Shown one piece after another: positions 1,585 to 24,068 of a stretch of DNA of 63,485 nt. A program made the translations under genes and the position numbers. The notes under the pieces were generated by a model. That model ran no database searches and was not told the origin of the DNA. It saw nothing but the letters and a program-made list of their open reading frames with translations. Each line of letters opens with the position of its first letter. Position 1 is the first letter of the stretch. This DNA comes from an uncultured delta proteobacterium (GTDB taxonomy: Bacteria; Desulfobacterota; RBG-13-43-22), in NCBI GenBank assembly GCA_963743305.1, contig CAVUPH010000043.1, forward strand, positions 1 to 63,485, given 5' to 3'.

Positions 1585-3862
1585 TCACACCGTTTTTTTC
1601 TGTTTCAACGCCGCCACGATCTTCTCCGGGGTGATCGGCAAATCATTGATCCGGACCCCGATGGCGTCGTAGATGGCGTTGGCGATGGCCGGGGCGGTGG
1701 GCACGCAGCCGGGTTCACCGATGCCTTTGGCGCCGAAGGGGCCGGCCGGGTCGTCGGTTTCCACCACCAGGGCCTTGATCGGAATCCGGTCCTTGGCGGT
1801 GAGCATTTTATAATCCCGAAAGTTCGGGTTCATGACCTCGCCTTTATGCAGAATGAGCTGTTCGCTCAGGGCATAGCCCACCCCCATGGCGATCCCGCCG
1901 TAGACCTGTCCCTCGAGGAGCAAAGGATTAATGGCCCGGCCCACGTCATGGGCGGCCACGTAGTTCAGGATCTTGACCTTGCCGGTTTCCGGATCCACTT
2001 CGACTTCCACCCCATGGGCCCCGAAGGCGTAGGCCATGGACATATTCCCCTTGAATTCCCGATCGAGGTTATCATTGGCCGGGTCGTAAAAATATTCCCC
2101 CATGATCATCGTGCCCCCGGGGCTGTAGTGGGCCTTGCGCAAGATCTTCTCTAGGGAGAGGGACCGGTCGGGGCTGCCCTTGACTGAGATCTTCCGGCCG
2201 CTCAAAATCAGATCGGCCCGGATGGGCCTCTAGCTCTCGGGAGGCGATTTCCAGAATCCGGTTCTTCACCTGGCGGGCGGCCATCAGGGCGGAGTTGCCG
2301 GCCACAAAGGTGGTCCGACTGGCGTGAGCGCCCACGTCCCAAGGGCAGACGTCGGTATCCTGGTTGATCACGTTGATGTCCTCCACCGTCAGCCCTAATT
2401 CTTCGGCGACGATCTGGGCGATCACCGTTTCCGATCCCTGTCCCATTTCGCTGGCCCCGGTAAAAACATCCACCTTGCCGTAGTCGTCCATCTTGATGAT
2501 GGTCCCGCAGCCGTCGGATTTGTACACCCGGGCCCCGCCGCCCACATGGATCAGGGAAGCCATCCCCACCCCACGGTTTTTCTGCCGGCCTTTTTTTTCC
2601 GTCCAGTTCAGTTCCCGAGCCACGGATTCCAGACAGGCCGGAAGGCCGCAACTGGTTATTTTAAGGCCCTGAGGGCTGATTTCACCCGGGGTGTTGCTGT
2701 TCAGCCTCCGAAATTCATACGGATCGATCCCGGCCTTTTCGGCCAGGATGTCCAACTGGCTTTCGATGGCGAACGTGGCCTGGGGATTGCCGTAGCCCCG
2801 CATGGCCTGACTATAGGTGTTGTTGGTGTAGACGCACTGGGCGATAAATCGGATATTAGGGACTTGGTAGAGGGAGGAGATGGGCATCATCATGACCGAA
2901 GGGGTCGTCGCTCCCCAGGAAGTATAGGCCCCGTTATCGAGAATCATGGTCAGGTCGCGGAAGGTGAGCCGGCCTTCCCGGGTGCAGCCCTGGGCGATAT
3001 CGATGATCGCCGGCTGGCGGGTGGATGTATCTTTAAATTCCTCCTGGCGGTCAAAGATGATCTTGATCGGCTTGCGGACGGCCCTGGCCAGCAGAATGGC
3101 GATGTACTCATAGGCATAGGTGTCCAGCTTGCTGCCGAAAGCCCCGCCGATGAAGGTCTGAATGATTCGGACCCGGGATTCCTTCAGCCCCAGGGCCTTC
3201 AGGAATTCCAGGTAATCTTTCTGGGCCAGCGAAGGGATCTGGGTATTGCTGTACATGGTCAGGTTGTTGCGCAAATCGAAATCGGCGATGCAGCCGCTGG
3301 TGCCCAGGCAGCAATGGGTCACCCAGGTGACTTTGAACCGGTCCTGGGCCACAAAGTCCGAATTCTTACGCGCTTCCTCCACATCGCCGCAGATGAGTTT
3401 CCACGGCAATTTGAGCAGATTGGACTTATGCGCTTCATGGATCAGCGGGGCCCCGGACTGAAGCGCCTCCTCCGGGTCGAAGAGGGCCGGCAGCGGGCTA
3501 TAGGTCACTTCGATTAAGTTCAGGGCCTCCCGGGCGATTTCCGGATCAATGGCCGCCACGGCGGCCACTTCGTCGCGGTAGGACCGCACCTTGCCGGTTT
3601 TGAGCGGCGTGTTGTCTTTATAAAAACCGAATTTGAGCGGGGGAAGCTGGTCGCCGGTCAACACCGCCCGGACACCGGGAAATTTTTCCGCCCGGGAGGT
3701 ATCGATTTTTTCTATTTTGGCATGAGGATATTTGCTGTATAAAATTTTTCCATAAAGCATCCCCGGCAGCTTCACGTCTTGGATATACCGGGCCCGGCCG
3801 GTAACCTTATCAAGGGCATCCCGCTTCGGGATGCGTTGACCTACGACCTGTAGTTCTTCCAT
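1585..3862 (-). CDS. Xanthine dehydrogenase-family molybdopterin-binding (large) subunit; one frameshift near 2219
   Basis: ORFs 2072..3862 and 1585..2205 join; motifs KVTGRARY, GGAFGSK, AMRGYGNPQ, EMGQG, GAHASRTT, HDVGRAINP, GAKGIGEPG. Confidence 0.9.
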
Positions 3863-3933
3863 AAATCCCTCGTCTCTTTTCGTTTCTCAGAATTTGATGA
3901 CCAGCTTCGGAAATAGCATCTCTCGGTTCCTTG

Positions 3934-3967
3934 GAGATTGCTTCGTCGCTTCACTCCTCGCAATGAC
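3934..3967. repeat. REP-like palindromic repeat, half copy
   Basis: GAGATTGCTTCGTCGCTTCACTCCTCGCAATGAC in the intergenic gap. Confidence 0.8.
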
Positions 3968-4035
3968 CGCGGGCGATAATGGCCTGCTTTTCAGCATCCG
4001 CTATCGTCTTTCCATTTTGTCCAGTATCCGAAGTT

Positions 4036-4534
4036 CTATGTCTCCCGGGTTATGAACTCCACGTCCTTTTCTTCATAGGCGCTCAAGGACTGAACGGCCT
4101 GGATGATCTGGGCGTAGCCGGTACACCGGCAGAAATTGCCTGCCAGGGCTGTCCGGATATCGTCTTCCGCCGGATGGGGATTTTCGTCCAGGAGCGCCTT
4201 GGCCGACAAGATCATGCCCGGGGTGCAGAAACCGCACTGAACGGCCCCATAGTTAATAAAGGCCTCCTGGAGGGGATGGAGGGATCCATCCGCAGCCGGC
4301 CAGCCCTTCGATGGTGGTCACCTCCCGCCCTTCAGCCTCCAGCACCGGGAAAAGGCAGGCGTTGACCGCCAGACCGTCCAGCAATACCGTGCAGGCCCCG
4401 CATTCCCCTTGCCCGCAGCCCTCCTTGGTCCCGGTAAGTTCCAAATGGTCCCGTAATAATTCCAATAGGGTCCAGTGGGGTTCCACCAACGTCTCCAGGG
4501 GATGGCCGTTTAATTTAAAAACCATTTTTTGCAT
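4036..4534 (-). CDS. Xanthine dehydrogenase-family 2x[2Fe-2S] (small) subunit; frameshift near 4290
   Basis: GTKEGCGQGECGACTV in ORF 4253..4534, continuing in another frame as QCGFCTPG...GNFCRCTGY to TAG at 4036-4038. Confidence 0.9.
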
Positions 4535-4575
4535 AATAGGATTAGAACCTCCTGAATAGGAATGCTAACCAAAGA

Positions 4576-5451
4576 TTATTTATTCTTAATTCTTTCCAGC
4601 ACTTTTAAACCCATTCGCCGGACCAGGGTCTCCACCATTTCCCGGCGATACCAGGCCTGTCCGCGGATACTGTCGCGGACTTTGGTTTCCTTGGCGGCGA
4701 TCAAGCCGGCTTCGGTCAGGGTGGCTTCGCTGATTTCCTGTCCCTCTAAAAATTCTTCGGCCAAATAAGCGCGGATAGGAGTGGGAGCGGCCACGCCCAG
4801 TCCGAACCGGGCCTTGGCGCAGGTTTTCAGGTCCGGACTCAGGGCCAGGAAACAGCCTACGCCCACGATGGGCAGCTCCATGGCCTCCCGTCGGGTATGC
4901 TTGACATAGCCGCCGCCGCTGTTGGCCGGCAGGGGCGGGATAAAAAATTCGGTCAATATTTCCCCCGGCTCCATCAGGGTCAGGCCCGGCCCCAGAAAAA
5001 AACTTTTCAGCGGCAGGGAACGTTTCCCTTTGGGTCCCACCAGGGTTACCTGGGCGCCCAGGATGAGCAAAGGGATCACCCCGTCGGCGGAGGGGACGGC
5101 ATTGCAGATGTTGCCCCCGATGGTGGCCACGTTGCGGATTTGCACCGACCCGATATGCTCGACGGCATCGGAGATACAGGGATAATAGCGACGGATCAAG
5201 GACGATTGCTCCAGCATCCGGTGGGTGGTCAGGGCGCCGAGACGCAAGATGCCTTCCGGGTCCCGGTGGATATAGGCCAGGTCGGGGATATGGCGCAGGG
5301 AAATCAAATAATCCGGCGTCATCTTCCTTTCTTTGATTTTAACGATCACATCGGTCCCCCCGGCGATATAGCGACCTTTTTCGCCATGGGACTCCAAAAG
5401 TGAAATGGCTTCATTAATGGACTTTGGTCTCAAGTATTCGAAAGAAGGCAT
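4576..5451 (-). CDS. Xanthine dehydrogenase-family FAD-binding (medium) subunit
   Basis: IAGGTD, QIRNVATIGGN, PSADG, RGQAWYRR motifs. Confidence 0.92.
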   Translation of the reverse strand: MPSFEYLRPKSINEAISLLESHGEKGRYIAGGTDVIVKIKERKMTPDYLISLRHIPDLAYIHRDPEGILRLGALTTHRMLEQSSLIRRYYPCISDAVEHIGSVQIRNVATIGGNICNAVPSADGVIPLLILGAQVTLVGPKGKRSLPLKSFFLGPGLTLMEPGEILTEFFIPPLPANSGGGYVKHTRREAMELPIVGVGCFLALSPDLKTCAKARFGLGVAAPTPIRAYLAEEFLEGQEISEATLTEAGLIAAKETKVRDSIRGQAWYRREMVETLVRRMGLKVLERIKNK

Positions 5452-5475
5452 GGGATTTAGTTCTCAATCCTTTCT

Positions 5476-5516: not shown

Positions 5517-6680
5517 TTATTCGACCAGCTTCCACTTCCCATTCTCTATGCGCACCAAGATCATGGAATCGGTGCCCAAACCATTGTGGTCTTCGGGAGT
5601 CAAATTGTAGATTCCGCTGACGCCGACATAATTCTTGGTATGTTCGATGGCGTCCCGTAACTTATTTTTTTCGGTGCCCACCTTCTTCATGGCATTGGCC
5701 ACAATATAGATGGCATCCCAGGCATACCCCGAGTGGGCATTGATGGCAAATTGTTTATCGTGGTGATAGACATCATTGTACAGGTGGACAAATTCCTTGA
5801 TGACCTTCTTCTGGGGATCCTTGTCGGAGAGCTGTTCCCAGGCCATGAGCTTGGTGGAGGGCATCATGTTCCCTTCGGCGGCCGATCCGGCCAGCTCAAT
5901 ATATTTAGGATCCGGCAACCCATGGCACTGAAACAAAGGAGTGTTGATGTTGAGTTGCTTCACGTTCTTGGCCACGATCGCTCCGGCAGGACCGATGGTC
6001 CAGCAGATGATCGCCTCGGGATTGACGGCCTTGATCTTGGTCAACTGGGAGGTCATATCCGTATCCTTGGGATTAAAGGACTCATCGGCAATAATGGACA
6101 GTCCGTGTTGGGAGGCCAGTTTTTCCAGCCAACGCTTGCCGTCCTTGCCGAAGCCGTCCGAGGCGGTGATCAGCGCGATTTTTTTCAGGTTTTTTTTCTG
6201 CAGATACTGGTAAACTTTTTCAACCGCGGTCGAACTGCGCTGGGGAGACTTGAAAACCCATTTGAACGTCCCCAGCGGACCGCCGCCCATGATCACCGGA
6301 TCTCCGCCCACGGTCATGAAGGTGGGGATTTCGGCCTCCTCGATCAATTTTTTCACGGCCATGCCCAGATCAGTGCGGTCCGGACCGATGACCGCGGCCA
6401 CCTTGTCGACATTGATGAATTTCTTAATGACCATGACCGCCTTGGTGGGGTCGGATTCGGTATCCCCCAGAACCAGCTCGATAGGCCGGCCGTTGATTCC
6501 TCCCTCTTTATTGATTTTTTCCACCACCATTTGCGTAACCAGTTTCGTCGGAGTCCCGATGGCGGCCGCCGGGCCGGATAAGGAATAAAAGGCGCCGATC
6601 TTAATCGGCTCCGCGGCAAAGGCCGAAGACCAGCACAGCACCAACAAACCCAGCAAAGCAAAGATTCCCAGTTTTTTCAT
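5517..6680 (-). CDS. ABC transporter substrate-binding protein, branched-chain amino acid/aromatic acid (LivK-like) family
   Basis: Signal peptide ending AFA-AE, IKIGAFYSLSGPAA, GGINGRPIEL, GVSGIYNLTPEDHNGL. Confidence 0.9.
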   Translation of the reverse strand: MKKLGIFALLGLLVLCWSSAFAAEPIKIGAFYSLSGPAAAIGTPTKLVTQMVVEKINKEGGINGRPIELVLGDTESDPTKAVMVIKKFINVDKVAAVIGPDRTDLGMAVKKLIEEAEIPTFMTVGGDPVIMGGGPLGTFKWVFKSPQRSSTAVEKVYQYLQKKNLKKIALITASDGFGKDGKRWLEKLASQHGLSIIADESFNPKDTDMTSQLTKIKAVNPEAIICWTIGPAGAIVAKNVKQLNINTPLFQCHGLPDPKYIELAGSAAEGNMMPSTKLMAWEQLSDKDPQKKVIKEFVHLYNDVYHHDKQFAINAHSGYAWDAIYIVANAMKKVGTEKNKLRDAIEHTKNYVGVSGIYNLTPEDHNGLGTDSMILVRIENGKWKLVE

Positions 6681-6762: not shown

Positions 6763-8052
6763 TTATATCCTGCTGTCGAAAACCCTCTTCGACTTCCGTT
6801 CCGATCGGGGCAGCATCCCGTAGTCGACCAGCTCAATCCGGGCGCTGACCAAGACCTGCTGTTTGATGCGCGCTTCAATCTTTTTGGCGAGATCGCTATC
6901 CCGAGCCGCGTCTTCTCCGCCGGCCCGTTCGAGGCGGACCAGCAGGGTATCTTTCCCGTCCGTCCCCCGGTTTAAATGGATCTGATATTCACTGCCCACC
7001 TCGGGGATTTCCGAAAGGATATGATCCAATTGGGCCGGATAGAGATTGACGCCCCGAAAAATAATCATGTCGTCGGAACGCCCCAAGATCCGGTCGTGCC
7101 GAGGCAGGATATTCCCGCAGGAGCAGGGGCCGGCGATCAACCGGGTCAGGTCCCGGGTTCGGTAACGGATTAAGGGCGCCGCCTCCTTGCACAAGGTGGT
7201 GACCACCATTTCTCCGGTCTGGCCAGGTTCCACCGGTTCCAGGGACAAGGGGTCCAGCAATTCAAGCAGATAATAATCGGCCCAATAATGAATACCCTCG
7301 TGGCGAACGCAGTCCAACCCGGTTCCCGGCCCGTAGAGTTCCGTCAATCCCGGGATATCAAACAGTTCTTCCAGCCCCAGCAGTTCTTGGATGCGCTTTC
7401 GTTGGGCCGCACTGCTTCGTTCCGAACCAAAGATGATTTTTTTTAAAGCGATCTTCCCTCGTAGCCCCCGCTTTTCCACCTCCTCGGCCATCAGCAGGGC
7501 CATGGAAGCGGTACAACAAAGGACCGTGGATTGAAGGTCCTCCAGAAACTGGCATTGGAGATCGATATTTCCGGGTCCTATCGGGATGGCCAGGGCTCCG
7601 AACCTTTCGCAGCCCAATTGAAAACCGACGCCGGCGGTCCAGACCCCGTAGCCCACGGCGATCTGGACCCGGTCCTCGCGGGACAATCCGGCCATCTCAT
7701 AGCAGCGGGCAAAAAAATGGGCCCAATCGTCGATGTCTTTCTGGGAATAGGCCAGGATCTTCCGCTTCCCGGTTGTGCCGGAGGAGGCGTGGATGCGGAC
7801 CACTTGTTCCAAGGGGACCGAAAGCAGCGGAAAGGGATACCCGTCCCGCAGGTCCTGGGCGGTGACAAAAGGCAGCCGGCGGATATCGTCCAACGATTTA
7901 ATATCTCCAGGCTTGATCCCGGCTTCGTCGAATTTATTTCGGTAGAAAGCCGATCCGCCATAGGCATGGTTGAAAGTCCATTGCAGGCCCTTCAGTTGAT
8001 GGGCAGCTAATTCCTCAGATGAAACAAACGAAGGCATGAAGGTGTCAGGCAT
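6763..8052 (-). CDS. Phenylacetate-CoA ligase (PaaK)-family aryl-CoA ligase
   Basis: RIHASSGTTGK, PLIRYRTRDLT, GRSDDMIIFRGVN, KSKRVFD. Confidence 0.9.
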   Translation of the reverse strand: MPDTFMPSFVSSEELAAHQLKGLQWTFNHAYGGSAFYRNKFDEAGIKPGDIKSLDDIRRLPFVTAQDLRDGYPFPLLSVPLEQVVRIHASSGTTGKRKILAYSQKDIDDWAHFFARCYEMAGLSREDRVQIAVGYGVWTAGVGFQLGCERFGALAIPIGPGNIDLQCQFLEDLQSTVLCCTASMALLMAEEVEKRGLRGKIALKKIIFGSERSSAAQRKRIQELLGLEELFDIPGLTELYGPGTGLDCVRHEGIHYWADYYLLELLDPLSLEPVEPGQTGEMVVTTLCKEAAPLIRYRTRDLTRLIAGPCSCGNILPRHDRILGRSDDMIIFRGVNLYPAQLDHILSEIPEVGSEYQIHLNRGTDGKDTLLVRLERAGGEDAARDSDLAKKIEARIKQQVLVSARIELVDYGMLPRSERKSKRVFDSRI

Positions 8053-8203: not shown

Positions 8204-9916
8204 TCATCGGCCCCGAATTCTTTTTGTTTCAGCCTCATCGGCTTCCTGGGTGACGGGGTCAATTTCAACCCCATATTCGTTCCTGGCGTTTTCCGGGCTG
8301 ACATATCCCTCCCGCACGTCTTCGGCCACTAATTCGGTCTCACGTTCGAAGGGATGTCCATAGCCGCCTCCGCCAGGAGCATCGATGATCACCCGGTCCC
8401 CGGGCTTCAACTGGGTTAATCCATAGGAATTCCCCGGTTCCCCGTTGATGAGGAATTGGGCCCGGGCACCGGGCCGGCCGTCAAAAAGCCCTTCCGCCGG
8501 GTAGCTGAACCTTCCCGCCTGGATTCCCAGGTTGACCGGCGGGATCGGGGCGTACTGGTCAGCGGGTATCCGAAAAACTTCTCTTTTCCCGAGGCCGCCC
8601 TTCATTCTCCCGGGTCCTCCCGAATCGATGAGGAGCTCCCGCTTTTCCACGATAAGCGGGGTGTCGCTTTCAAATATTTCTATCGGGGTATTCGCGCCGT
8701 TGGCCGGGAAGATGTAAACGTAATTACCGTCGTTGGCCGCTCCGGCCCCCATGCCGCCTCCCCGGATGATCACGGAATGCCAGGGCTTCCCGTCTTTCCT
8801 TCTCCCGTAAAAGACGTTCATCGCCGCCGGGGTCCCGCCGGATCCGGCAATGACTTTTTGAGGTAACACTTCGGAAAGAGCCCGGTAGATGACTTCGGTC
8901 ATGAAATGTCCCACCCCCATCCGGGCTGCCACGGCGGCCGGAAATTTGCAATTTACCACGCTCCCCTCCGGGGCGGTCAAACGTATCGGCCGGGCACAGC
9001 CTTCGTTATTTGGGATATCCGGAGCAAACATACTTTTGATGGCCATGAAGACATAGGCAAAGGTAAAATTGAAAACCACGTTGCCGCCCCAGTTGACCTG
9101 CCCGGAAGAGCCGGCAAGGTCCACCAGGATGTCGCTCCCCTTGATCTCGACCTGGGCTTGGATCACGATGTCCTCTTTTCCCCTGGCCTGTTCGATGAGG
9201 CCTTGGGCCCGGTAAATACCGTCCGGGATCTTTTCGATCTCTTCCCGCATGCTTTTTTCCGTCAGACGGATAATCTGGTCGGCCAGGTCGTCCAGGTTCT
9301 CCAGGTCACTCTCCTTAAGCATCTGGCCAACCTTTTCGGCGCAGACGAAGTTTGCTGAAATTTGCGAGCGGATATCTCCGGTAACCTCATCAGGCGTCCG
9401 AACATTCCAGCGGATCAAATCCAGGACCGATTGGTTGAGGACCCCTCGGTCATAGAGCCTCACGAAAGGGATGAACAGGCCTTCTTCGAAGACATCATGA
9501 TTGTCGGAGGCCACGCGGCCTCCGATATCGGAGTGATGAAAAACACAAGCGGTGAAGGCGACCAATTGTTCCCGGTAGAAAATCGGGCTCATGACACAGA
9601 TGTCATTCAGGTGCCCCGCCAGGGCCCAGGGATCATTGGTAATAAATACGTCCCCTGGCTGGTAGGTGTCGGCCGGATACTTATTGACGAGGGCCTTTAC
9701 CCCCAGGGCCATGGCCCCCGACTGGCCGGGGGTGGCAAAGGTCCCCTGGGCCAGTTCCCGACCCTTGCGGTCGGTAAACATACAGGTGTAATCGTGGGCA
9801 TCCCGGAGCAGACTCGAGAAGGCGGTCCGAGCCACACTGCCGTCCGCCTCGTCCACGATGGCGATCAGCCTGCGCCATAAAATTTCTAAAGTGATCGGAT
9901 CAAACGCGCGACCCAT
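8204..9916 (-). CDS. Hydantoinase B / 5-oxoprolinase-family subunit
   Basis: DPITLEI, FITNDPW..GHLND, HHSDIGG, NTPIE, SGGPGRMKGGLG, PGGGGYG. Confidence 0.92.
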   Translation of the reverse strand: MGRAFDPITLEILWRRLIAIVDEADGSVARTAFSSLLRDAHDYTCMFTDRKGRELAQGTFATPGQSGAMALGVKALVNKYPADTYQPGDVFITNDPWALAGHLNDICVMSPIFYREQLVAFTACVFHHSDIGGRVASDNHDVFEEGLFIPFVRLYDRGVLNQSVLDLIRWNVRTPDEVTGDIRSQISANFVCAEKVGQMLKESDLENLDDLADQIIRLTEKSMREEIEKIPDGIYRAQGLIEQARGKEDIVIQAQVEIKGSDILVDLAGSSGQVNWGGNVVFNFTFAYVFMAIKSMFAPDIPNNEGCARPIRLTAPEGSVVNCKFPAAVAARMGVGHFMTEVIYRALSEVLPQKVIAGSGGTPAAMNVFYGRRKDGKPWHSVIIRGGGMGAGAANDGNYVYIFPANGANTPIEIFESDTPLIVEKRELLIDSGGPGRMKGGLGKREVFRIPADQYAPIPPVNLGIQAGRFSYPAEGLFDGRPGARAQFLINGEPGNSYGLTQLKPGDRVIIDAPGGGGYGHPFERETELVAEDVREGYVSPENARNEYGVEIDPVTQEADEAETKRIRGR

Positions 9917-12078: not shown

Positions 12079-12105
12079 TTCTTCTCCAAAGTGTATAAGG
12101 ATGAT

Positions 12106-12402
12106 CTATCTTCTTTTTATCAACCAATAAATCAAAAACCATTCCAATAAAGCAATAATTATTACAAAAAATCGTGGGATTTTTTTTAAAACAAAATCAG
12201 TAAAATATATAATTAAGATAATGAAAAACAAAAAACCTAAAATATAAAAGAAGATATTATCGTTTTTATTTCCTGGCAAATATCCCAAAAAAGAAGCAAT
12301 TATTATTACAAACCCCCAAAGCAATATATTGGCAAAAATATAGTCTAAAAGTTTTCTAAAAATATCATACACATAGCTCTCCCGTTCTATTTTTTCGGAC
12401 AA
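12106..12402 (-). CDS. Small AT-rich membrane protein (about 3 TM), putative immunity protein of the orphan RHS tip
   Basis: Three hydrophobic stretches; overlaps the stop of the orphan RHS module; start uncertain (TTG 12402 or a downstream GTG). Confidence 0.6.
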   Translation of the reverse strand: MSEKIERESYVYDIFRKLLDYIFANILLWGFVIIIASFLGYLPGNKNDNIFFYILGFLFFIILIIYFTDFVLKKIPRFFVIIIALLEWFLIYWLIKRR

Positions 12403-13134
12403 ATTATTGATGGATTGTTTGGCGGCATAAAAAGTCTAGTTTGCGGATCATAAATCCAACCTGAAGGATAGTCGATTGGTTCAATCGGTGGCCACTCGTA
12501 AAGAGGATAAGCAAATTCAGACGGGTTCATTAATACCCAGAAGATAGAGGATGCGGTTATCAATCCAACACTAATACCAGGGGTAACTATCGGCAGATTG
12601 GTTAGTTGACCAATTACCTCTTCGCCAATTGTGCGACTGATGCTTGGTAACCATTTTTTTATAAGATTCCTCATAGATTGAATTGCTTGCAACCCCAAAG
12701 GATCCACCCAATTCTCTGGATCATTCCCCACATACCGAAACAGATTCACATCCCCGCCCCAAAACCCGATCGGGTCCTTGCTGATGAACCGCCCCGCCTT
12801 GGGATCATAATACCTCGCTCTATAGTAATACGGCCCCGTTTCCACGTCGTATTCCCGGCCAGTAAAGGTGAAAGGCTGATCAAGGCCCCCGGTTTGGGCG
12901 GTGATCTTCCCGAAACTGTCGTAGCGGTAGGTCTTGGTGGTATTCCCTGAAGTGTCGGTCAGCTCATTAACGCTCCCCAGACCATCGGTATGGTAGTAGT
13001 AGACATTTCCACCCTGATCGACGGAAAGAGGTTCGTCGAGTCCTCGCCCGAAGACGTATTTCGACCGGACCGTCCAGAGCCCGTTGTAGGCCGCGACCAT
13101 GTTAAGGCTGTCATAGATGGAGGTGGTCACCTGG
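12387..13134 (-). pseudogene. Orphan RHS core fragment plus 100 aa C-terminal toxin tip
   Basis: YYYRARYYDP..GRFISKDPIG..NLFRYVGNDP.NWVDPLGL; similarity to the main RHS gene starts abruptly near 13134, without its own credible start. Confidence 0.8.
12690..13134 (-). repeat. RHS core direct repeat, copy 2 (about 440 bp)
   Basis: High nucleotide and protein similarity to 14200-14645. Confidence 0.85.
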
Positions 13135-13219
13135 TTTAGTATCCCTTCGGATAAGCTTTTTCTGTATATTTTGGCGCTCAATAAAGAACTGCTAAAAAAC
13201 ACGTTACGATGTAAAATAT

Positions 13220-13963
13220 CTATCCCAACGGGTTAGACCAGTAGATACCTAGAAAATTTACGATACAATGAGAAACAATCGGGGATAGGATGGATTCAGT
13301 TTTTTCATAAAGTAAACAAAACATTATAGGAGCCAGAATAAATCCACCATCAGGATGAGATGTTACAAAAATGAATGAAGTTATTAAAACGGCTAAAATC
13401 GCGCCATATTTCTTCCTATAAGTTGAATATAATAAACCACGAAAAACCAATTCCTCCACAAAAGGAGCAAAAAATATTACTAAAAAGAAAAATAATATAT
13501 GATTAAAAGAAATGGGAGGGGTATCTATCCCCCACATCTCTTTCCAAAAATTAGTCTCTTTTCCAAAAAGTTTTAATAAATTTATACCTATAAAGTTAAT
13601 GATAAACCCTGCAACCAGCCCATAGCCAATGGCCTTGAATAAATTGTCAAATTTAAAACCTAAAACCTTGATATTCTGTCTCAGCCGAAACTTAAAATAG
13701 GCGAACAAAAAAAGTAGCACTAAAATATGGGATGCATACAAATACATCCCTTTGATGAGAGAAGTGGAATTAATGACATAATCAATTAGAACATAGTAAA
13801 ATAGAAAATTAGTGGTATTAAATAATAAGATAATTGTTACTATATCGATAGGCCTCCATTGCTGGTGTTTAAAAAGTTCCTTTTCCCCATCATTTATATC
13901 CTTCTTCTTTAAAAGAGAGAGAAGGAATATTAGAAGGAAAAAAATGGTAATCCATCTTGTCAT
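13220..13963 (-). CDS. CPBP-family (CAAX/Abi, Rce1-like) intramembrane metalloprotease, putative immunity protein
   Basis: EELVFRG, FVTSH and SHCIVN motifs; multi-TM; ATGA overlap with the RHS stop; AT-rich. Confidence 0.85.
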   Translation of the reverse strand: MTRWITIFFLLIFLLSLLKKKDINDGEKELFKHQQWRPIDIVTIILLFNTTNFLFYYVLIDYVINSTSLIKGMYLYASHILVLLFLFAYFKFRLRQNIKVLGFKFDNLFKAIGYGLVAGFIINFIGINLLKLFGKETNFWKEMWGIDTPPISFNHILFFFLVIFFAPFVEELVFRGLLYSTYRKKYGAILAVLITSFIFVTSHPDGGFILAPIMFCLLYEKTESILSPIVSHCIVNFLGIYWSNPLG

Positions 13964-16900: not shown

Positions 16901-18235
16901 CCCTTCCGGTTTGTAGCGGCCGCCGTTGGGGTAGAGGGTCATTCTCCTCCCGTCTCCTTCCACTACGGTATAGGAGTTGTTATTGTTCAATAGAAGCTTG
17001 AGGTTATAGGTGTGAGTCCAGCCGAGCCCGAGGGGCGCCGATTGGCCGTCGAAGCTGTTATAGGAGAGGACGAAGTCCTTTTGAAATTTGGAGTGGGGAA
17101 GGCTGAACAGGCTCTGGTCATGATGGAGATTGCCGCTGGCCACGTTAACCAGGGAGCCCCAGGAAGCATTCAGACAAATGTCCTTTATATCCGTAACCGT
17201 AATAGGAGTACTCTGAGTGGTGCTGTCGGTGCAGCCGCCGCCGCTGGTCCGGGCCTGCAAGAGGGCCGAATAGGTTCCCGGTTGAATCCGGCGACCGGAG
17301 GCATCCCGTCCATCCCAGTCCACCGAGACATTTTCGTTTGTCCCTTGTTGGAGTATCATCCCGTTCAGGGACAGCGTCCAATCCACCGTACCCCCTCCCG
17401 ATGGAGTGGGAATGGTGGCGGAAATCGAAGTGGCTCCCCCGGCAGCCAGGTTGATTTTGGTGGTAGTGGTATTAAACCCTTTGATTTCAGCTAGGCAGGG
17501 GATGGTATCGGCAGGGCAACACCCTGCCCCGATTTGGGCGGAGGTCCGCATATCATGACGACCCGCCGCGCAACCGTCCGGACAGTTCGTCGAAATGCAA
17601 GCCGCCCTTTCAATATCGCAGCCGGGTCCCCCCCATTCCCAAAATTCTTCTACCGTACAACCTGTTACAAAGTGCCCGGGAGAACAGCCATAAAAAGAAT
17701 CTCCCAGTGTCCCGTTGCAGCCAAAATTCCTTTTTGTAACCTGGTAAGTACAATAGCCAAGATTACGACCGGCACAACCACCGGCCACATCTTCATAACT
17801 ATGGGTCACGAAGGTCGGGCTGGCATAATACCCGGCGATCTCGTAAAGGGCATTGACAGCCAACGACATATCGGTTGTGGCGTTGCAACTATCCGTTAGC
17901 CGGATAACCGGGTTGCCGGCGCAGTTGGCATTGGAAGTTGGCGCGGTGTAACTATTCGAGGTTCCGGAGCTTCCGGAGAGGCTTCCACCGCCATTGACAA
18001 TGGACCAGGAATACGGCCCTCCCGCACCGCCAGAGGCCGATAAGCCCTGGGTCCCGTTGACATTCAACTGTTTGGTGGTTGAGCCGATAATTGGAGGGGG
18101 GCAGTCCTGGCAGGAGGTGCATTGGGACCAGGAATCATTCAGAAGGAAAATTTGTATAATTAGGGACCAAGAAACACAGAGAAGAACAGAATAATGATTT
18201 TTTAAGGGCCATCTTGATGTAAACATTATCTTCAC
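13960..18235 (-). CDS. RHS/YD-repeat polymorphic toxin: signal peptide, Cys-rich N-terminus, FlgD-like Ig domain, DUF6531-like domain, YD repeats, RHS core, 79 aa tip; frameshift near 14459
   Basis: WDGRDASG..PGTY, VNVASGN..SYNS..LGLGWTHTY, many YD repeats; removing one C in TCCCGGAAAT joins 14357..18235 to the DPLGL-containing ORF 13960..14343. Confidence 0.88.
14200..14645 (-). repeat. RHS core direct repeat, copy 1
   Basis: Matches 12690-13134. Confidence 0.85.
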
Positions 18236-18261
18236 CTAATATATTCTCACTTCTTTTGTCG

Positions 18262-19890
18262 TCAAAAGATACTGGGCTCCTCGAAAGTTCCATAGGCTTC
18301 CCGGAACACCTGGGTCATCTCCCCCACCGTACAGTAAGCCCGGCAGCAGTCCACCAGGAAGGGCATGACATTTTTCTTTTCCCCGACGGCCCCTTCCAAG
18401 GCTTTCAAAGATCGGGAAACTTCGGCGGCGGACCGCTCCCGGCGCAGGGCCTGCAGGTCTTTAATCTTCTCCACCGCGGTTTCCTCCCGGTAGTCGTGCA
18501 GGGCCACGTCCTCCTCCTCCCCGACCACGTATTTGTTCACCCCCACCTTGATCAATTCCCCTTCCTGGACGGACTTCTCGAATTCATAGGCCTGCCGGGA
18601 AACCTTTTGTTGAATGTAGCCCTGGGCTACGGCCCGGACCACGCCGCCGATTTGTTCGATTTCCTGCATTTCGGCCAAAATCCTGTTTTCCATCTCCTTG
18701 GTCAGGGTCTCGATGAAATAGGAGCCGGCCAGGGGATCGACCGTGTCGCGGAGTCCGACCTCTTCCATCAGGATCTCCAGGGTCCGCAGGGAAAGCAGGG
18801 CCGCCCGTTCGGTCGGGATGGTGTAGGCCTCATCGAAGGAGCAGAGAGCCGTGGTCTGGGCCCCGCCCAGGGCGGCCGCCAGAGCATAGTAGGCCCCGCG
18901 GATGATGTTGTTTTCCGGCTGGGCCTTGGTCAGCCCGTAGCCACCGCCTCCAAAGAGGCCCCGGAGGTACAGGTCCTTATCCTTTTTGACGTCGTACTTC
19001 TCCTTCAAATTCTTGGCCCAGAGTTTTCGGGCGGCCCGGAACTTGGCCACCTGTTCCCAGAGGTTGCCGAAGATGTTCAGATTGAAGGAAAAGCGACCCA
19101 CGAACTGGTCGGCCGTGTAGCCCCGGCGGACGACCTCGTCGATATAGGCGTTGGCGATCAGGATGGCATAAGCGATTTCCTGGGCCGGCGTGGCCCCGGA
19201 TTCCCGGATGTGGTAGCCGCAGACGCTGACCGGATTGCACTTGGGCAGCTCCTTCATGGAATACTCGATGGTGTCCCCGATCAGGGCCACGGCCGGTTCG
19301 ATGGGGAAGATCCAGGCCCCGCGGCCGATCATTTCCTTGAGAATATCGTTCTGGGGGGTGGCGCTGATCTGCTCCTTGGTATAGCCGGATTTTTCGGCCA
19401 TGGCCTGGAACATGGCCAACATAATGTCCGCCACGGCGTTGATGGTCAGTCCCACGCCGATCTTGTCCAATTGAATGTCCTTAAAAGCAATTTCAAAGTC
19501 CCGTAGGGAATCCACGGCCATACCCACCCGGCCCACCTCGCCTTCGGCCAGGGGATCGTCGGAATCCAGACCCATCTGTGAGGGAAGGTCGAAGGCCACG
19601 TTCAGCCCGGTCTGCCCGTGGCCGATCATCAGCTTAAAGCGCTCGTTGGTCTCGGCCGGGGTCCCAAAGCCGGTGTATTGTCGAGTAGTCCAGGCCCGAC
19701 TACGGTAGCCCAAGGGATGGATACCCCGAGTAAAAGGGTAGGTCCCCGGATCGGCCAGATCCCGTTCATACTGGAAACCGGCCGCCTCTAAATCCTTCGG
19801 GGTATACACCGGCTTAACTTTAATACCGGACTGCAGGGTGACTTCCTGGATCCCATCTTTTTTATCCTTCTGATATTTGGCTACACCCAT
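18262..19890 (-). CDS. B12-dependent acyl-CoA mutase large (substrate-binding) subunit, methylmalonyl-CoA mutase family
   Basis: PGTYPFTRG, RQYTGFGT, AFDLP, QNDILKE, GYHIRESGA, DPLAGSY, TVGEM; no DxHxxG cobalamin-binding domain. Confidence 0.92.
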   Translation of the reverse strand: MGVAKYQKDKKDGIQEVTLQSGIKVKPVYTPKDLEAAGFQYERDLADPGTYPFTRGIHPLGYRSRAWTTRQYTGFGTPAETNERFKLMIGHGQTGLNVAFDLPSQMGLDSDDPLAEGEVGRVGMAVDSLRDFEIAFKDIQLDKIGVGLTINAVADIMLAMFQAMAEKSGYTKEQISATPQNDILKEMIGRGAWIFPIEPAVALIGDTIEYSMKELPKCNPVSVCGYHIRESGATPAQEIAYAILIANAYIDEVVRRGYTADQFVGRFSFNLNIFGNLWEQVAKFRAARKLWAKNLKEKYDVKKDKDLYLRGLFGGGGYGLTKAQPENNIIRGAYYALAAALGGAQTTALCSFDEAYTIPTERAALLSLRTLEILMEEVGLRDTVDPLAGSYFIETLTKEMENRILAEMQEIEQIGGVVRAVAQGYIQQKVSRQAYEFEKSVQEGELIKVGVNKYVVGEEEDVALHDYREETAVEKIKDLQALRRERSAAEVSRSLKALEGAVGEKKNVMPFLVDCCRAYCTVGEMTQVFREAYGTFEEPSIF

Positions 19891-19932: not shown

Positions 19933-20655
19933 TCAAGCGATGTCCTGTCCTAGAAAGGCCCGGCGGACCTTTCCATCCTGCAGCAGGTCTTTCGACCGAC
20001 CGCTGGAGGTGATCTCTCCGGTCTCCAGGACATAGGCCCGCTGAGAGATTTGCAGCGCTCCGCGGGCATTCTGCTCGACCAGCAGAATGGTCCGGCCCTC
20101 ATCCTGGAGCGTCTTGATGATGCGAAAGATCTCCTGAACGATCATGGGGGCCAACCCCAGGGAAGGCTCATCCAACAGGAGCAGTTTGGGGTTGGCCATT
20201 AATCCTCGACCGATGGCCAGCATTTGCTGCTCTCCTCCAGAGAGGGTGCCCGCCCGCTGTTTTCGGCGCTCCTTAAGAATGGGGAAAAGGGCATAAATCC
20301 GCTCTATTTCCTGGATCAGCGCCTTTTTCCTCTCCTGCCGGGAACAGCCATAGGCCCCCATTTCCAGGTTCTCTTTGACCGTCAGGGGGCCAAAAAGCTG
20401 TCGGCTTTCCGGGACCTGAACGATCCCCAGTCGAACCCGTCGCTGCGAATCCGTCCCGCTGACATCCTGCCCCAGAAAACTAATTTTACCTTTCCGCAAG
20501 CGATGGACGCTGGAGAGGCAATTGAGCAAGGTCGTCTTGCCGGCCCCGTTGGCCCCGATCAAGGAAACAATTTCCCCCGGTTTGACTTCCAGGGAGACCC
20601 CTTTTAAGGCCTGGTTGCCGCCGTAATAGGCTTCCAGGTTTTCTACCGCTAACAT
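19933..20655 (-). CDS. ABC transporter ATP-binding protein (LivF-like)
   Basis: GANGAGKT, LSGGEQQ, LLLLDEPSLGL, LVEQN. Confidence 0.92.
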   Translation of the reverse strand: MLAVENLEAYYGGNQALKGVSLEVKPGEIVSLIGANGAGKTTLLNCLSSVHRLRKGKISFLGQDVSGTDSQRRVRLGIVQVPESRQLFGPLTVKENLEMGAYGCSRQERKKALIQEIERIYALFPILKERRKQRAGTLSGGEQQMLAIGRGLMANPKLLLLDEPSLGLAPMIVQEIFRIIKTLQDEGRTILLVEQNARGALQISQRAYVLETGEITSSGRSKDLLQDGKVRRAFLGQDIA

Positions 20656-21410
20656 CCGACCTCGGTCCCCAGGTAGGCCGCCAGGACTTGGGGATCCTTC
20701 TGAATCGCCTCCGGAGGTCCGGCGGCGATCTTTTGTCCAAAATTTAGAACCACGATCTGATCCGATATCCCCATGACCAGGTTCATGTCGTGTTCGACTA
20801 ACAGCACCGAAATCCCCTGAGCGCAGATCCGGCGAATCAGGTTGGCCACCTCCAGGGTCTCGGTCATATTCAGGCCGGCCACCGGTTCGTCCAGCAGAAT
20901 CAGGTCGGGCTGGGAAGCCAGGGCCCGGGCCATTTCGATTCGCTTTTGATCCCCGTAAGACAGACTGGCCGCCGGCCAGGGTCCCTGGTTGCGGAGGTTA
21001 AAAAAATCCAAAATCTCCCAGGCCTTCCGTTCGATCTCCCGCTCCTCCTGACGGACACCCGGGAGAAAAAAGAGGGAGGAGAGGAACTCCTTGTGTGTCC
21101 GGCCGTGCAGACCCACCATCACGTTTTCCAGAACGGTCATGTTTTGAAAAATCTGTATATTCTGAAAGGTCCGGGTCAGCCCCAGACGGGCCAGCCGATA
21201 AGGCCGCTGCCCGGTGACGGAACGCCCGTTAAAAAGAACCCTCCCTTTCTGCGGCCGATAAATTCCCGAAATGACATTGATCGCGGTTGTCTTGCCGGCG
21301 CCGTTGGGTCCGATCAGGGCGGTGATCCGTCCCCGGGGCAGGTCAAAACTCACTTCCCCCAGAGCCATCAATCCCCCAAAACTGATGGAGACCTCCTGAA
21401 CCTGCAGGAT
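20649..21410 (-). CDS. ABC transporter ATP-binding protein (LivG-like); start uncertain
   Basis: GPNGAGKT, RTFQN, LSYGDQK, LLDEPVAG, VEHDM; frame extends upstream of the called TTG as ILQVQEVSISFGG. Confidence 0.88.
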   Translation of the reverse strand: MLQVQEVSISFGGLMALGEVSFDLPRGRITALIGPNGAGKTTAINVISGIYRPQKGRVLFNGRSVTGQRPYRLARLGLTRTFQNIQIFQNMTVLENVMVGLHGRTHKEFLSSLFFLPGVRQEEREIERKAWEILDFFNLRNQGPWPAASLSYGDQKRIEMARALASQPDLILLDEPVAGLNMTETLEVANLIRRICAQGISVLLVEHDMNLVMGISDQIVVLNFGQKIAAGPPEAIQKDPQVLAAYLGTEVGC

Positions 21411-21483: not shown

Positions 21484-22440
21484 TCAAGTTCCGTTTCCTG
21501 CGCCGAACCGGTTTCGAAGGGCGACCACCACCCCTTCGGGTAAAAAGATTAGAATAAAGACCAGGATTAATCCATAAAAGATATCCTTATATTCATCAAA
21601 AAAGTGCAGCATCCCCGGTAGAGGGGTGATGAAGGTAGTCCCGAAAAGGGTTCCCCAAATACTGCCCATACCACCGACGATGACCATGGTCACCAATTCG
21701 ATGGAAAAGAAGATATCGAAGGTCTTCGGGCTGATAAAAGTCAAATAGTGGGCATAGAGGCTCCCGGCCAGGGAGGCATAGAGGGCGCTCAAAACAAAGA
21801 CCTTCACTTTGTAGACTGCGGTTTTTACGCCCAGGGAACCGGCGGCCACTTCGCTTCCGTGCAAGGCCCGGAGGCCTCGGCCGACCCGGGAATGAACCAG
21901 GTTTAAGGCCAGGGCAATCCCGACAAAAGTAAAGAACCAGATCAAATAGTACATCTTTAGGTCGGAATCGAAGACCAGGCTCCCGATTTTCAGGTTGGGT
22001 ATCCCGGGAAACCCGGAAGGACCGCCGGTGACCTGATCCCACTGGATCATAACAATATTGACGATGATATTAAATCCGAGGGTGGCCATAACCAAATAAT
22101 GGCCGTGCAATTTCAGGGTAGGGATACCGATCAGCAAGGCCAGCAACCCGGTGACCATCAAGGCCAGGCCCATGGCGGTCCAAGGAGAAAAATGATAACT
22201 GACCGTCAAAATTCCGGAAAGATAGGCCCCCAGGCCATAAAAAGCGGCGTGGCCCAGAGAGATCTGGCCGGCATACCCGATCAGCAGATTGAGCCCCACC
22301 ACGATCAGGGTGTTCAGGCCGATGATATTGACTACGTTCAAATAATAAGGATTGTTGATGACCAGGGGGAAGAGGAGGAGGATCAGGCCCAGGAGCAGCA
22401 AGCCCAAATAGGATTTATTCTTGATCCATCCCCAAATCAT
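21484..22440 (-). CDS. ABC transporter permease (LivM-like)
   Basis: GYAGQISLGHAAFYGLGAY, TGGPSG, GGMGS, FLPEG. Confidence 0.9.
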   Translation of the reverse strand: MIWGWIKNKSYLGLLLLGLILLLFPLVINNPYYLNVVNIIGLNTLIVVGLNLLIGYAGQISLGHAAFYGLGAYLSGILTVSYHFSPWTAMGLALMVTGLLALLIGIPTLKLHGHYLVMATLGFNIIVNIVMIQWDQVTGGPSGFPGIPNLKIGSLVFDSDLKMYYLIWFFTFVGIALALNLVHSRVGRGLRALHGSEVAAGSLGVKTAVYKVKVFVLSALYASLAGSLYAHYLTFISPKTFDIFFSIELVTMVIVGGMGSIWGTLFGTTFITPLPGMLHFFDEYKDIFYGLILVFILIFLPEGVVVALRNRFGAGNGT

Positions 22441-22444
22441 CAGG

Positions 22445-23331
22445 TTAGACCCGTTCCTTTTCGCCGAAGCCCAATAGGCCGCTCGGTTTCACAAACAAAA
22501 CCAGGAGCAGGATGATAAAGGCGAGCACATCTTTATAGCTGGAAGAGATCAGACCGGCCCCCAACGATTCCAAAACCCCCAACAACAAGCCGCCGATGAC
22601 GGCCCCAATAATATTTCCATACCCTCCCAAGACCGCGGCGGCAAACCCCTTTAACCCCAGCATGACGCCGATATCGTAAGACAAGGTGGTAATCGGGAAC
22701 GATAATAATGCCGGCAATGGCCCCCAAGGCCCCGCTCAGGGCAAAGGAGAGGAGGATCATGCGGTTGACATTGACCCCCATCAGGGCGGCGGCCCGGGGG
22801 TTGAAGGAGGTGGCCCGCATGGCCTTGCCCGTCAAGCTGTGATTAAAAAAGAGATGGAGGATGACCACGACGGCCAAGGTAATGAAGAAAATCCAGACGC
22901 TTTGAGGCAGCACCGCGGCCCGTAAAAGGATAAAGGGCGTATCCCCGCTAAAGGGAGGCACGGCCATCTGGTTTTTCCCCCAGATCACTTTAAAGGTCCC
23001 GCGCATCAGGATGGAAACCCCGATGGTAATAAATATCAGGACGATGACCGCGCGGGACTTGGCCGGTCGGATGGCCAACCGCTCCACCAGACCCCCCCGC
23101 CAGCGTAACGGTGATGACCGCTAATACGAAGGCCAGGGGCAGCGGCAGGCCCAGGCCCAGCAAAAAGGTATACATCATCAATCCGCCCAAGGTGATGAAA
23201 TCCACCTGGGTGAAATTCACAATCCCGGTGGCATTATGAATAATACAAAAACCGAGGGCGATGAGGGCATAGATGCTGCCGGTGGTTAGGCCGGAAACAA
23301 TGAATTGGGCTACTTGGTCGCCTATGGGCAT
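22445..23331 (-). CDS. ABC transporter permease (LivH-like); two frameshifts
   Basis: Joined ORFs 22990..23331, 22533..23087 and 22445..22717: GSIYALIALG, GKAMRA, KGFAAAVLGG, KPSGLLG. Confidence 0.85.
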
Positions 23332-23396
23332 AAACGGTTTCTATTAAGATCCGCCAGAACCGAAGGACGGGTTATTGGGGCGTTGTGTTGGAGTTA

Positions 23397-23455
23397 TTTG
23401 AGCGCTTGCTTTAACCTTCCGCTCTACCCTAATAAAAAAACCCCTTTTTTGTCAA
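23397..23455 (-). promoter_or_regulatory. Sigma70-like promoter for the transporter/catabolic operon with a putative TetR operator
   Basis: TTGACA (23455-23450), 18 nt, TAGGGT (23431-23426); operator-like TTTGAGCGCTTGCTTTAA at 23397-23414. Confidence 0.55.
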
Positions 23456-23462
23456 TATTTAT

Positions 23463-24068
23463 TTAGCTGTTTTTTAGCTGTTTTGCCCCAGCTCCCCGCT
23501 TCCGATAGATCCCCTGGGTAAAAATCGTATAGAAAATCTCGGAGAGTTCTTCCAATTTCACTTTCCCGTCCGGTCGATACCAGCGATAGGCCCAACTGAC
23601 CATGCCGAAAAAAGCATAGGCGCAGACCGTCAGGTCGATATCGAGCATCTCCCCCTGGTCCTGGAGCTGTTGCAGGATAGCAATAAGCCGGCTCACATAC
23701 TCGCTTTGTTTCTGATTTAGCTCTTTCCGATGGCCGGGGCTCAACGATCGTTGATCATGGACCAAGAGTTTCATTTTATCAAAGTCCACGGCCGCCGTGG
23801 TATGAATTCGGAGGGTCAGGGCCAATTTTTCCTTTAAGGGTCTGGGGCTTTGTTCAATTTCGGTAATTCGTTCCAATCCGGTGCGAATGACCTCTTCCAG
23901 GATCTGGTAGAGTAATTGCTCTTTACTATCGAAATAATAATACAGAGAGGCATTATTAATCCCCGCGGCCCCGGCGATATCGCGGGTGGTGGTATTTTCA
24001 AAGCCTTTCTCGGCAAAGAGTTTGGCGGCGACCTCCCGGATCTTGGTTCTTTTTTCTTCTTTGGGCAT
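23463..24068 (-). CDS. TetR/AcrR-family transcriptional regulator
   Basis: AAKLFAEKGFENTTTRDIA..LYYYFDSKEQL HTH; C-terminal WYRPDG. Confidence 0.92.
   Translation of the reverse strand: MPKEEKRTKIREVAAKLFAEKGFENTTTRDIAGAAGINNASLYYYFDSKEQLLYQILEEVIRTGLERITEIEQSPRPLKEKLALTLRIHTTAAVDFDKMKLLVHDQRSLSPGHRKELNQKQSEYVSRLIAILQQLQDQGEMLDIDLTVCAYAFFGMVSWAYRWYRPDGKVKLEELSEIFYTIFTQGIYRKRGAGAKQLKNS

Follow-up and report, generated by a model that had tools for sequence, protein, structure and literature searches.

We examined a cluster of genes on the minus strand of the window, a stretch of 63,485 bp that forms the entire contig C43 of its source genome (G000), a metagenome-assembled genome of 4.9 Mb in 43 contigs with 90% completeness and 5.7% contamination. 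The cluster lies between positions 1585 and 24068, and on balance we read it as the main part of an iaa-type pathway by which indole-3-acetate, or a heteroaryl-acetate very close to it, would be broken down without oxygen. It encodes the large subunit of a B12-dependent mutase, a HyuA/HyuB pair, a PaaK-like ligase, an ABC transporter with its binding protein and a three-subunit molybdenum enzyme of the xanthine dehydrogenase (XDH) family.

In Aromatoleum/Azoarcus (A. aromaticum EbN1, A. evansii), indoleacetate is degraded anaerobically through the products of the iaa gene cluster. To our knowledge, the biochemistry of anaerobic auxin and tryptophan-derived indole breakdown has been studied only in denitrifying Aromatoleum, and the characterised enzymes are just IaaB, IaaL and IaaF. 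Gene families in the window were assigned from a listing of open reading frames (ORFs) together with Pfam and NCBIfam profile scans. These scans found every gene that an earlier, sequence-only reading of the window had named, all co-oriented on the minus strand. That reading had not reported a polymorphic-toxin cassette inside the cluster, several frameshifts and the absence of a B12-binding domain. Gene content, orthology relations, conservation and the insertion of the cassette were observed directly and are presented as such below.

Relationship of the cluster enzymes to the iaa system

In the available text of PMC8360864, IaaB is the indoleacetate-CoA ligase, IaaL the phenylsuccinyl-CoA transferase, IaaGH the mutase and IaaM the binding protein, while IaaF is the decarboxylating dehydrogenase (benzylmalonyl-CoA) in which GGG replaces YEG. 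We scanned a genome collection with the gene-specific part of the iaaF primer published there, and 29 loci were returned. Locus L089 of A. buckelii U120, which carries the gene set named in Fig. 1 of the same paper as far as its available text goes, was the sole iaa cluster among the 29 and was used as the iaa reference; it is a stand-in, with A. aromaticum not among the loci returned. The other 28 loci were rejected as ordinary acyl-CoA dehydrogenase loci, including one (L068) with an unrelated mutase at 41%. The order of L089 is thiolase-like protein, 512-aa AMP-binding ligase, HyuA, HyuB, GGG dehydrogenase, B12 subunit, mutase, FAD subunit, FeS subunit, molybdopterin (Mo) subunit, family III CoA-transferase and binding protein. 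The gene letters used here for the iaa hydantoinase (e.g. IaaC) and the Mo subunits, as well as the early pathway steps, are those that we take to be established.

The large (substrate-binding) subunit of the B12-dependent acyl-CoA mutase (18262-19890; PF01642, 588 bits) was 55-56% identical to its A. buckelii iaa counterpart. The A. buckelii iaa mutase matched the window's protein best in G000, at 56% versus 43-44% for three paralogues, and the reverse search in A. buckelii gave 56% versus 37%, making the two reciprocal best hits. They have in common RQY, IGRG and an identical 12-residue active-site stretch, SVCGYHIRESGA. Both residues of the dicarboxyl-CoA mutase signature, Tyr and Arg, were kept; in methylmalonyl-CoA mutase these residues contact the free carboxylate. 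The solved mutases HcmA (PDB 4R3U) and methylmalonyl-CoA mutase (PDB 2XIJ, 1REQ) share the family and the Tyr/Arg signature, but HcmA scored 438 bits and the human methylmalonyl-CoA mutase 372 bits, compared with 663 bits for the iaa mutase. Against PRK09426 (methylmalonyl-CoA mutase) the score was 453.6 bits, which did not reach the cut-off of 876, and only the domain model TIGR00641 was passed.

The Mo subunit (1585-3862; PF01315, PF02738 and PF20256 across two ORFs, frameshifted as assembled) was 51% identical to its A. buckelii iaa counterpart over the first 549 residues and 41% over the rest. The iaa Mo subunit matched the window's best in G000, at 51% versus at most 36% for five paralogues. 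For the reverse direction we used the intact orthologue of a relative, G033, whose best A. buckelii match was the iaa Mo subunit, at 47% versus 36%. The 2x[2Fe-2S] subunit (4036-4534, also frameshifted as assembled) was recognised from its sequence and by comparison with relatives and was 51% identical to the iaa counterpart. The FAD subunit (4576-5451; PF00941 and PF03450) was 34-35% identical.

The nearest solved structure to the Mo subunit was the alpha subunit of 4-hydroxybenzoyl-CoA reductase (HcrABC; PDB 1RM6) at 405 bits, with the next at 246, and its best NCBIfam match, TIGR03194, gave 445 bits (first 548 residues) and 163 bits against a cut-off of 994. The FAD subunit scored 117 bits with TIGR03195 (HcrB), cut-off 405, and 250 bits with XdhB; alignment A1 showed no Cys-rich insertion of the HcrB kind. 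We take the Cys-rich 4Fe-4S insertion in the FAD subunit to be the defining feature of the HcrABC family. HcrABC is thus alike in belonging to the XDH family and in having a CoA thioester as its substrate, but differs in this loop, in the TIGR03194 and TIGR03195 cut-offs that the window's proteins did not reach, and in the direction expected here, which is that of a hydroxylase. An FAD subunit without the insertion, together with a Mo subunit nearest to an HcrA-type alpha subunit, fits a hydroxylase on a CoA thioester and not a reductase. Since 4-hydroxybenzoyl-CoA reductase acts on a CoA thioester, the similarity also fits an order in which the ligase comes first.

The HyuA-type subunit (9979-12078; PF05378, PF01968, PF19278) and the HyuB-type subunit (8204-9916; PF02538, 487 bits) of a putative ATP-dependent lactam-opening enzyme were the sole such genes in G000 and the best hits of the iaa pair. 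Identities to the iaa counterparts were 35-37% for HyuA and 31% for HyuB, and the best A. buckelii match of HyuA was the iaa HyuA, 37% versus 31%. Caprolactamase (CapAB, PDB 6YRA) and N-methylhydantoinase (PDB 7HK5) were the top NCBIfam and PDB matches, above the carboxylases of the family (241-333 bits). With the CapA and CapB models (NF050156/NF050157), the pair scored 525 and 255 bits and did not reach the cut-off of 1000, and the window's HyuAB differs from both solved enzymes in being a separate lineage. By these scores, HyuAB appears as a lineage of its own, deeply divergent, within the lactam-opening branch of the family.

The CoA ligase (6763-8052, 429 aa; PF00501 and PF14535) resembles the aryl-acetate ligase PaaK. 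The fold and domain pair are those of PaaK (PDB 4R1L, 2Y27; 354 bits to 4R1L), but the TIGR02155 (PaaK) score of 407.8 bits did not reach the cut-off of 646.3. The ligase of the A. buckelii iaa cluster, IaaB, is a protein of 512 aa with PF00501 and PF13193. In A. buckelii, the window ligase instead matched three PaaK paralogues best (39-40%), all of them encoded away from the iaa cluster. Within G000, the next PaaK-like gene was 39% identical to the window ligase, compared with 69-98% among orthologous clusters. Its sequence marks it as a dedicated, cluster-specific PaaK-like paralogue. The best matches of IaaB in G000 were at most 42% identical and lay on other contigs, and the window cluster holds no ligase of the IaaB type. 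A further ligase in the window, at 33187-34590, was considered as IaaB and rejected, being 34% identical and only the fifth-best match in G000. This AMP-binding ligase lacks its N-terminus as assembled; after it, up to 38147, come a binding protein of the NMT1/TAXI type and a fused permease of the DctM type.

The first gene of the row encodes a TetR-family regulator (23463-24068; PF00440 and PF17932). It is followed by the LivH-type permease (22533-23331, frameshifted as assembled, with PF02653 profile positions 2-74 and 77-202 in two ORFs), the LivM-type permease (21484-22440; PF02653) and the LivG-type (20649-21371; PF00005 and PF12399) and LivF-type (19933-20655; PF00005) ATPases. The periplasmic binding protein of the transporter (5517-6680; Peripla_BP_6, PF13458) was 28% identical to the iaa binding protein and was the best match of the latter in G000 (179 versus 135 bits). 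Its nearest solved relatives were 3UK0, 7YLT, 3UKJ, 3SG0, 3TX6 and 4JB0, all of which we take to be aromatic-acid binding proteins. The sequence-only reading had placed this gene about 13 kb from the other transporter genes; the distance is correct for this genome, but 6.2 kb of it is the inserted cassette.

Both the iaa cluster and the system studied here combine a CoA ligase with an XDH-family molybdenum enzyme, an ATP-dependent opener of the HyuA/B type, a family III CoA-transferase, a B12-dependent acyl-CoA mutase and an ABC transporter that relies on a binding protein. Reciprocal best hits with L089 were obtained for the mutase, the Mo subunit and HyuA, in agreement with the iaa-like route that the sequence-only reading had proposed, and also for the CoA-transferase, which is encoded elsewhere in the genome. 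The differences are that the window ligase is PaaK-type and not IaaB-type, that HyuAB is 31-37% identical, that the CoA-transferase and B12 subunit lie on another contig, that the regulator is TetR, that the toxin cassette is inserted, and that there is no clear IaaF or thiolase-like IaaA inside the window cluster. Differences from iaa had been claimed before and do exist, in the non-orthologous ligase and the divergent HyuAB; they are not the ones that had been named.

We searched the rest of the genome for the functions that the cluster lacks. No B12-binding domain (PF02310) was found anywhere in the window, and 20 were found elsewhere in G000. On contig C17 (131012-132583), a CoA-transferase and a B12 small subunit lie side by side, and they were 78% and 83% identical to proteins encoded inside the cluster of a relative, G018. 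The family III CoA-transferase (131012-132199) and IaaL were reciprocal best hits, at 41-43% versus 31%, and the iaa small subunit (IaaG) had its best match in G000 with this B12 subunit, at 51%. A second copy of the trio (C33:2123-5143, L047), with stops and frameshifts as assembled, was 72-84% identical to the G018 proteins; a sigma-54 response regulator follows the pair on both C17 and C33. No mutase large subunit was found near either pair, and large-subunit matches occurred solely on C43, C32, C13 and C12. The window thus holds an orphan large subunit and the other contigs orphan small subunits, and these fit together. The CoA-transferase is encoded inside the cluster in G018, G021 and G033. 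The earlier statement that a local CoA transferase is lacking is therefore true of the window, but the gene is present with the B12 subunit on C17. The pathway is split over at least two loci in this genus and is here also interrupted by the cassette.

In G033, the cluster includes a dehydrogenase with the GGG motif that was the best match of A. buckelii IaaF, at 50% versus 38%, and G018 carries an IaaF match at 49% on another contig. The two best IaaF matches in G000 (42% and 41%) both carry GGG. One GGG-motif dehydrogenase of G000, on C16, adjoins a carboxyltransferase. Another lies in a second aromatic-type cluster (C25:71771-79934, L095), where we observed TetR genes, the FAD, FeS and Mo subunits of another XDH-family enzyme, an AMP-binding CoA ligase, the GGG-motif acyl-CoA dehydrogenase (41% to IaaF) and a Peripla_BP_6 binding protein. 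Neither dehydrogenase was assigned as IaaF.

The cluster appears to work like the iaa pathway. The Mo hydroxylase, the mutase and the CoA-transferase of the two systems are orthologous, but the ligases are not, and the lactamase is divergent; the substrate, step order and activity of the cluster are predictions from sequence. The acid would be taken up by the Liv-type ABC system with its binding protein, and the PaaK-like ligase would make the CoA thioester. The XDH-family molybdenum enzyme would then hydroxylate the carbon beside the ring nitrogen to give the lactam (2-oxindole-acetyl-CoA), which HyuAB, using ATP, may open to (2-aminophenyl)succinyl-CoA. The IaaL-type family III CoA-transferase would move the CoA, and the B12 mutase would rearrange the product to (2-aminobenzyl)malonyl-CoA. 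Decarboxylation and oxidation, then beta-oxidation, would yield a product of the benzoyl-CoA type that could enter the anaerobic ring pathway. The Oah/BamA ring hydrolase of the anaerobic benzoyl-CoA pathway was found in G000 above its curated cut-off, so such a product could be degraded further. ABC or TRAP uptake together with a PaaK-type ligase is compatible with an aryl-acetate.

The NrdD/NrdG genes were also present in G000 and, with the Oah/BamA hydrolase, are compatible with an anaerobe. The gene dsrA was not found above cut-off in this 90%-complete genome, and we therefore did not label the organism a sulfate reducer.

Conservation of the cluster in the phylum

HyuA orthologues with at least 70% identity were found in 11 of 40 sampled relatives, and an even draw of 200 other genomes from the phylum yielded 23 with an orthologue of at least 63% identity. 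We counted the neighbours of HyuA at these 23 loci, using flanks of 1.5 kb per side. HyuB adjoined HyuA at all 23 loci, the mutase at 13 and the PaaK-like ligase at three. Neither mutase nor ligase was found within 1.5 kb at seven loci, in one of which (G031) the mutase lies one gene further upstream. The complete gene set was present in the longer loci of G002, G003, G018, G007 and G033, and the combination of genes is not due to chance. The sequence-only reading would have fallen if the proteins had grouped elsewhere and the combination had been confined to this genome; we found best-hit orthology to the Iaa proteins and HyuA loci in 23 of the 200 genomes.

The gene order of G002 and G003 was the same as in the window. 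G018 has CoA-transferase, LivHMGF, B12 small subunit, mutase, HyuAB, ligase, binding protein, FAD, FeS and Mo subunits, and G007 has TetR, mutase, HyuAB, ligase, TRAP DctPQM, FAD, FeS and Mo subunits. In G021 the order is CoA-transferase, GntR, MeaB, B12 subunit, mutase, HyuAB, ligase and FAD subunit. The cluster of G033 starts with the acyl-CoA dehydrogenase, a TRAP system, CoA-transferase, the beta and alpha subunits of an electron transfer flavoprotein (ETF), an ETF-QO-like protein and GntR, and continues with B12 subunit, mutase, HyuAB, ligase, FAD, FeS and Mo subunits. At the position of the window's TetR, G002 and G007 have regulators that are 95.5% and 84% identical to it, other relatives have GntR/FCD, and TRAP DctPQM stands in place of the binding protein in G007, G031 and G033. 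The enzyme core is thus constant among the orthologous clusters, while the regulator (TetR or GntR) and the transporter (Liv-type ABC or TRAP) vary. TetR had been put forward as a sign of novelty; given this variation, it is a weak one.

The available text of PMC8360864, citing Schuhle et al. 2016, gives predicted iaa operons of strict anaerobes for Desulfatiglans anilini, other sulfate reducers, strain NaphS2, Desulfocarbo indianensis and Ferroglobus placidus, and it describes an iaaF orthologue and ETF genes in the operons of strict anaerobes such as D. anilini, other sulfate reducers and Ferroglobus. Our literature searches found no open paper besides this one that describes anaerobic iaa operons, and the available parts of PMC5897657, PMC4207700 and PMC11659651 held nothing on operon content. 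The G033 cluster, with its GGG-type IaaF orthologue and ETF genes beside the CoA-transferase, mutase, HyuAB, ligase and Mo enzyme, resembles these operons, and the window cluster is orthologous to that of G033 at 58-74% identity. However, the genus of the window lacks IaaF, ETF, CoA-transferase and B12 subunit in cis. The cluster is a variant of a pathway already described in strict anaerobes: the route was rightly called iaa-like, but its occurrence in a strict anaerobe is not new in view of the operons of sulfate reducers and an archaeon in the available text of PMC8360864.

An iaa-related cluster is thus common in one anaerobic phylum, occurring in 23 of 200 sampled genomes, or about one in nine. 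It uses another type of CoA ligase and a very divergent ring opener, and it can be split over several loci. Concrete targets for study are thus the ligase, HyuAB, and the combination of the large subunit with a small subunit from another locus of the genome.

A different arrangement was observed in G013 (L026, C47:12000-31999), where HyuAB was 85% and the mutase 88% identical to those of the window and no ligase was present. HyuAB adjoins a different XDH-type enzyme there; its FAD subunit is HcrB-like and carries four Cys in an insertion of 38 residues. A saccharopine-dehydrogenase-like gene and an aminotransferase gene come next, and the opposite strand encodes the mutase, the B12 subunit, a TRAP system and succinyl-CoA synthetase. 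We also observed a sister clade of HyuA (46-51% identity; L116-L120, L033) in 8 of the 200 genomes, with an adjacent mutase in none of the six loci examined.

Alternative readings of the cluster

Several results weigh against an iaa-type function. The window ligase is not orthologous to IaaB. The iaa FAD subunit has a better match in G000 than the window's FAD subunit, which is only 34% identical to it. HyuA, at 416 bits to N-methylhydantoinase, 357 bits to the caprolactamase entry and about 390-404 bits to IaaC, is no closer to IaaC than to N-methylhydantoinase, and IaaC itself matched caprolactamase (486 bits) and N-methylhydantoinase (466 bits), both above the window HyuA. No clear IaaF orthologue was found in G000, which is 90% complete, or in G003, where the best matches, at 41-42%, were near paralogues. 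The LivH, FeS, Mo and RHS toxin genes are broken as assembled; the break in FeS is common to G000 and G002, so it is not a random error. The inserted cassette may stop transcription of the seven genes downstream of it.

The first alternative keeps the enzyme logic (activation, hydroxylation beside nitrogen, ATP-dependent lactam opening and B12 rearrangement) and changes the substrate to another N-heterocyclic or lactam-forming aryl or alkyl acid. It draws on the ligase, on a HyuAB lineage equally far from IaaC and N-methylhydantoinase, on the 31-37% (HyuAB) and 34% (FAD subunit) identities to the iaa proteins, and on G013, where HyuAB and the mutase occur with a different XDH-type enzyme and without the ligase. 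Moreover, no cluster enzyme reached the curated cut-off of any NCBIfam equivalog in the scan of the window; these models place each enzyme in a family but give none a specific function. However, the mutase, the Mo subunit, the CoA-transferase and the IaaF of G033 matched Iaa proteins specifically as best hits, with clear gaps to paralogues; a PaaK-type ligase suits an aryl-acetate such as indoleacetate; and the identities lie within the range expected for orthologues across phyla. We consider a change of substrate unlikely, but the strongest of the competing explanations. In its more specific form, the cluster type would represent an anaerobic route not described so far, in which the iaa-type Mo hydroxylase, CoA-transferase and B12 mutase were borrowed for another N-heterocyclic or lactam-forming acid; we regard this as rather doubtful. 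If true, this enzyme logic would gain a new class of substrates, defined by the ligase and the lactamase.

A second alternative is that the cluster in G000 is a decaying, non-functional remnant, with real frameshifts in LivH, FeS and Mo and an operon cut by the insertion. The frameshifts are 1-nt insertions, two in LivH and one each in FeS and Mo, and a 6.2-kb insertion does separate the mutase from hyuA. We compared the assembled sequence with that of G002, a genome of the same genus with 95-97% DNA identity to the window in the alignment, with other relatives, and with contigs of four public metagenome runs (X1-X4, of which X1 and X3 are from soil). LivH has two extra bases, at about 23090 and 22698, and is intact in G002 (294 aa); the short-read contig of X4 lacks the base at 23092. 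The Mo subunit has an extra base at about 2221 and is a single frame in G002 and G003. Wherever G000 and G002 differed by a single-base indel within a gene (25036, 23090, 22698 and 2221), the extra base was in G000.

The FeS subunit has one extra base at about 4291-4296, which is common to G000 and G002 (L021, at about 18095) and absent from G003 and G018. The site is not a homopolymer, and the DNA of G000 and G002 differs at 3-4% of positions. Downstream of the break, counts of synonymous to non-synonymous differences in the shifted frame were 7:0 against G002 and 24:1 against G003, and contigs of X1 and X4 were one base shorter at the site (4294/4296). A programmed frameshift at this position was considered; reading of the sequence revealed no known slippery motif.

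Synonymous changes prevailed in the other genes as well. Between G000 and G002, synonymous to non-synonymous counts were 56:5 for the mutase, 45:17 for HyuA, 48:19 for HyuB, 25:9 for the ligase, 49:5 for the binding protein, 18:3 for the FAD subunit and 71:19 for the Mo subunit. Housekeeping-type genes on the same contig were also split in two ORFs with consecutive Pfam profile coordinates, namely a metallo-beta-lactamase-fold gene (25340-26552), NrdD (26862-28986), a ClpX-like AAA ATPase (47221-49033) and MscS (62205-63397). Many single-base indels were observed contig-wide. The frameshifts are most likely assembly errors, and the shared one in FeS is probably systematic. With such breaks in housekeeping genes, extra bases always on the G000 side, mostly synonymous changes in every cluster gene and short-read contigs without the extra base at 4294/4296 and 23092, albeit from relatives that differ by 1-5%, we judge a decayed remnant improbable. 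Genes absent from a cluster and frameshifts in long-read metagenomes should not be taken for novelty or decay before the rest of the genome and its relatives have been checked.

The least probable alternative, a phenylacetate/hydroxyphenylacetate cluster whose XDH-family enzyme is a dehydroxylase of the 4-hydroxybenzoyl-CoA reductase type, is suggested by the PaaK-like ligase, the top NCBIfam match TIGR03194 and the nearest structure 1RM6, but we rejected it as very improbable because all scores were far under the curated cut-offs and the FAD subunit lacks the Cys-rich insertion (XdhB 250 versus HcrB 117 bits), because HyuAB and the B12 mutase would be left unexplained, and because the iaa Mo subunit was a better match than two other XDH-family proteins of A. 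buckelii.

The RHS cassette and other genes of the window

The RHS/YD-repeat polymorphic-toxin cassette (12088-18263, minus strand; PF05593, PF20148, TIGR03696, PF02517) is outside the pathway. It spans 6,176 bp between the stop codon of the mutase and the ribosome-binding site of hyuA. In the alignment, G002 has 2 bp in place of 12088-18263, with 12 bp from the mutase stop to the hyuA start, and contigs of the soil-metagenome runs X1 and X3 join 12087 straight to 18264. As both G002 and these contigs lack it, the cassette is an insertion into an older operon. A third run had pieces identical to the cluster and to the RHS gene. Across the four runs, most of the RHS region was without cover and no contig crossed either junction of the cassette, from which nothing was inferred.

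The cassette consists of an RHS core of 1,292 aa (14357-18235, frameshifted at about 14455), a C-terminal tip (13960-14343, no Pfam family), a CPBP/Rce1-like protein as putative immunity gene (13220-13963; PF02517) and an orphan second tip that differs from the first (12387-13202, no Pfam family), all on the minus strand. The GC content of the distal 2.3 kb (12088-14356) was 0.38, compared with 0.56 for the cluster. A promoter and terminator scan of the insert gave 17 promoter-like sites, where 8.9 ± 3.3 were expected; the stretch is rich in AT, and the scan is not informative on transcription into hyuA. The AT-rich tail of the cassette (12100-12380) may encode a small membrane protein.

Elsewhere in the window, the minus strand encodes a DDE transposase of 591 aa (PF01609) at 53008-54783; large proteins with Laminin_G_3 domains are encoded close by (49909-51879).

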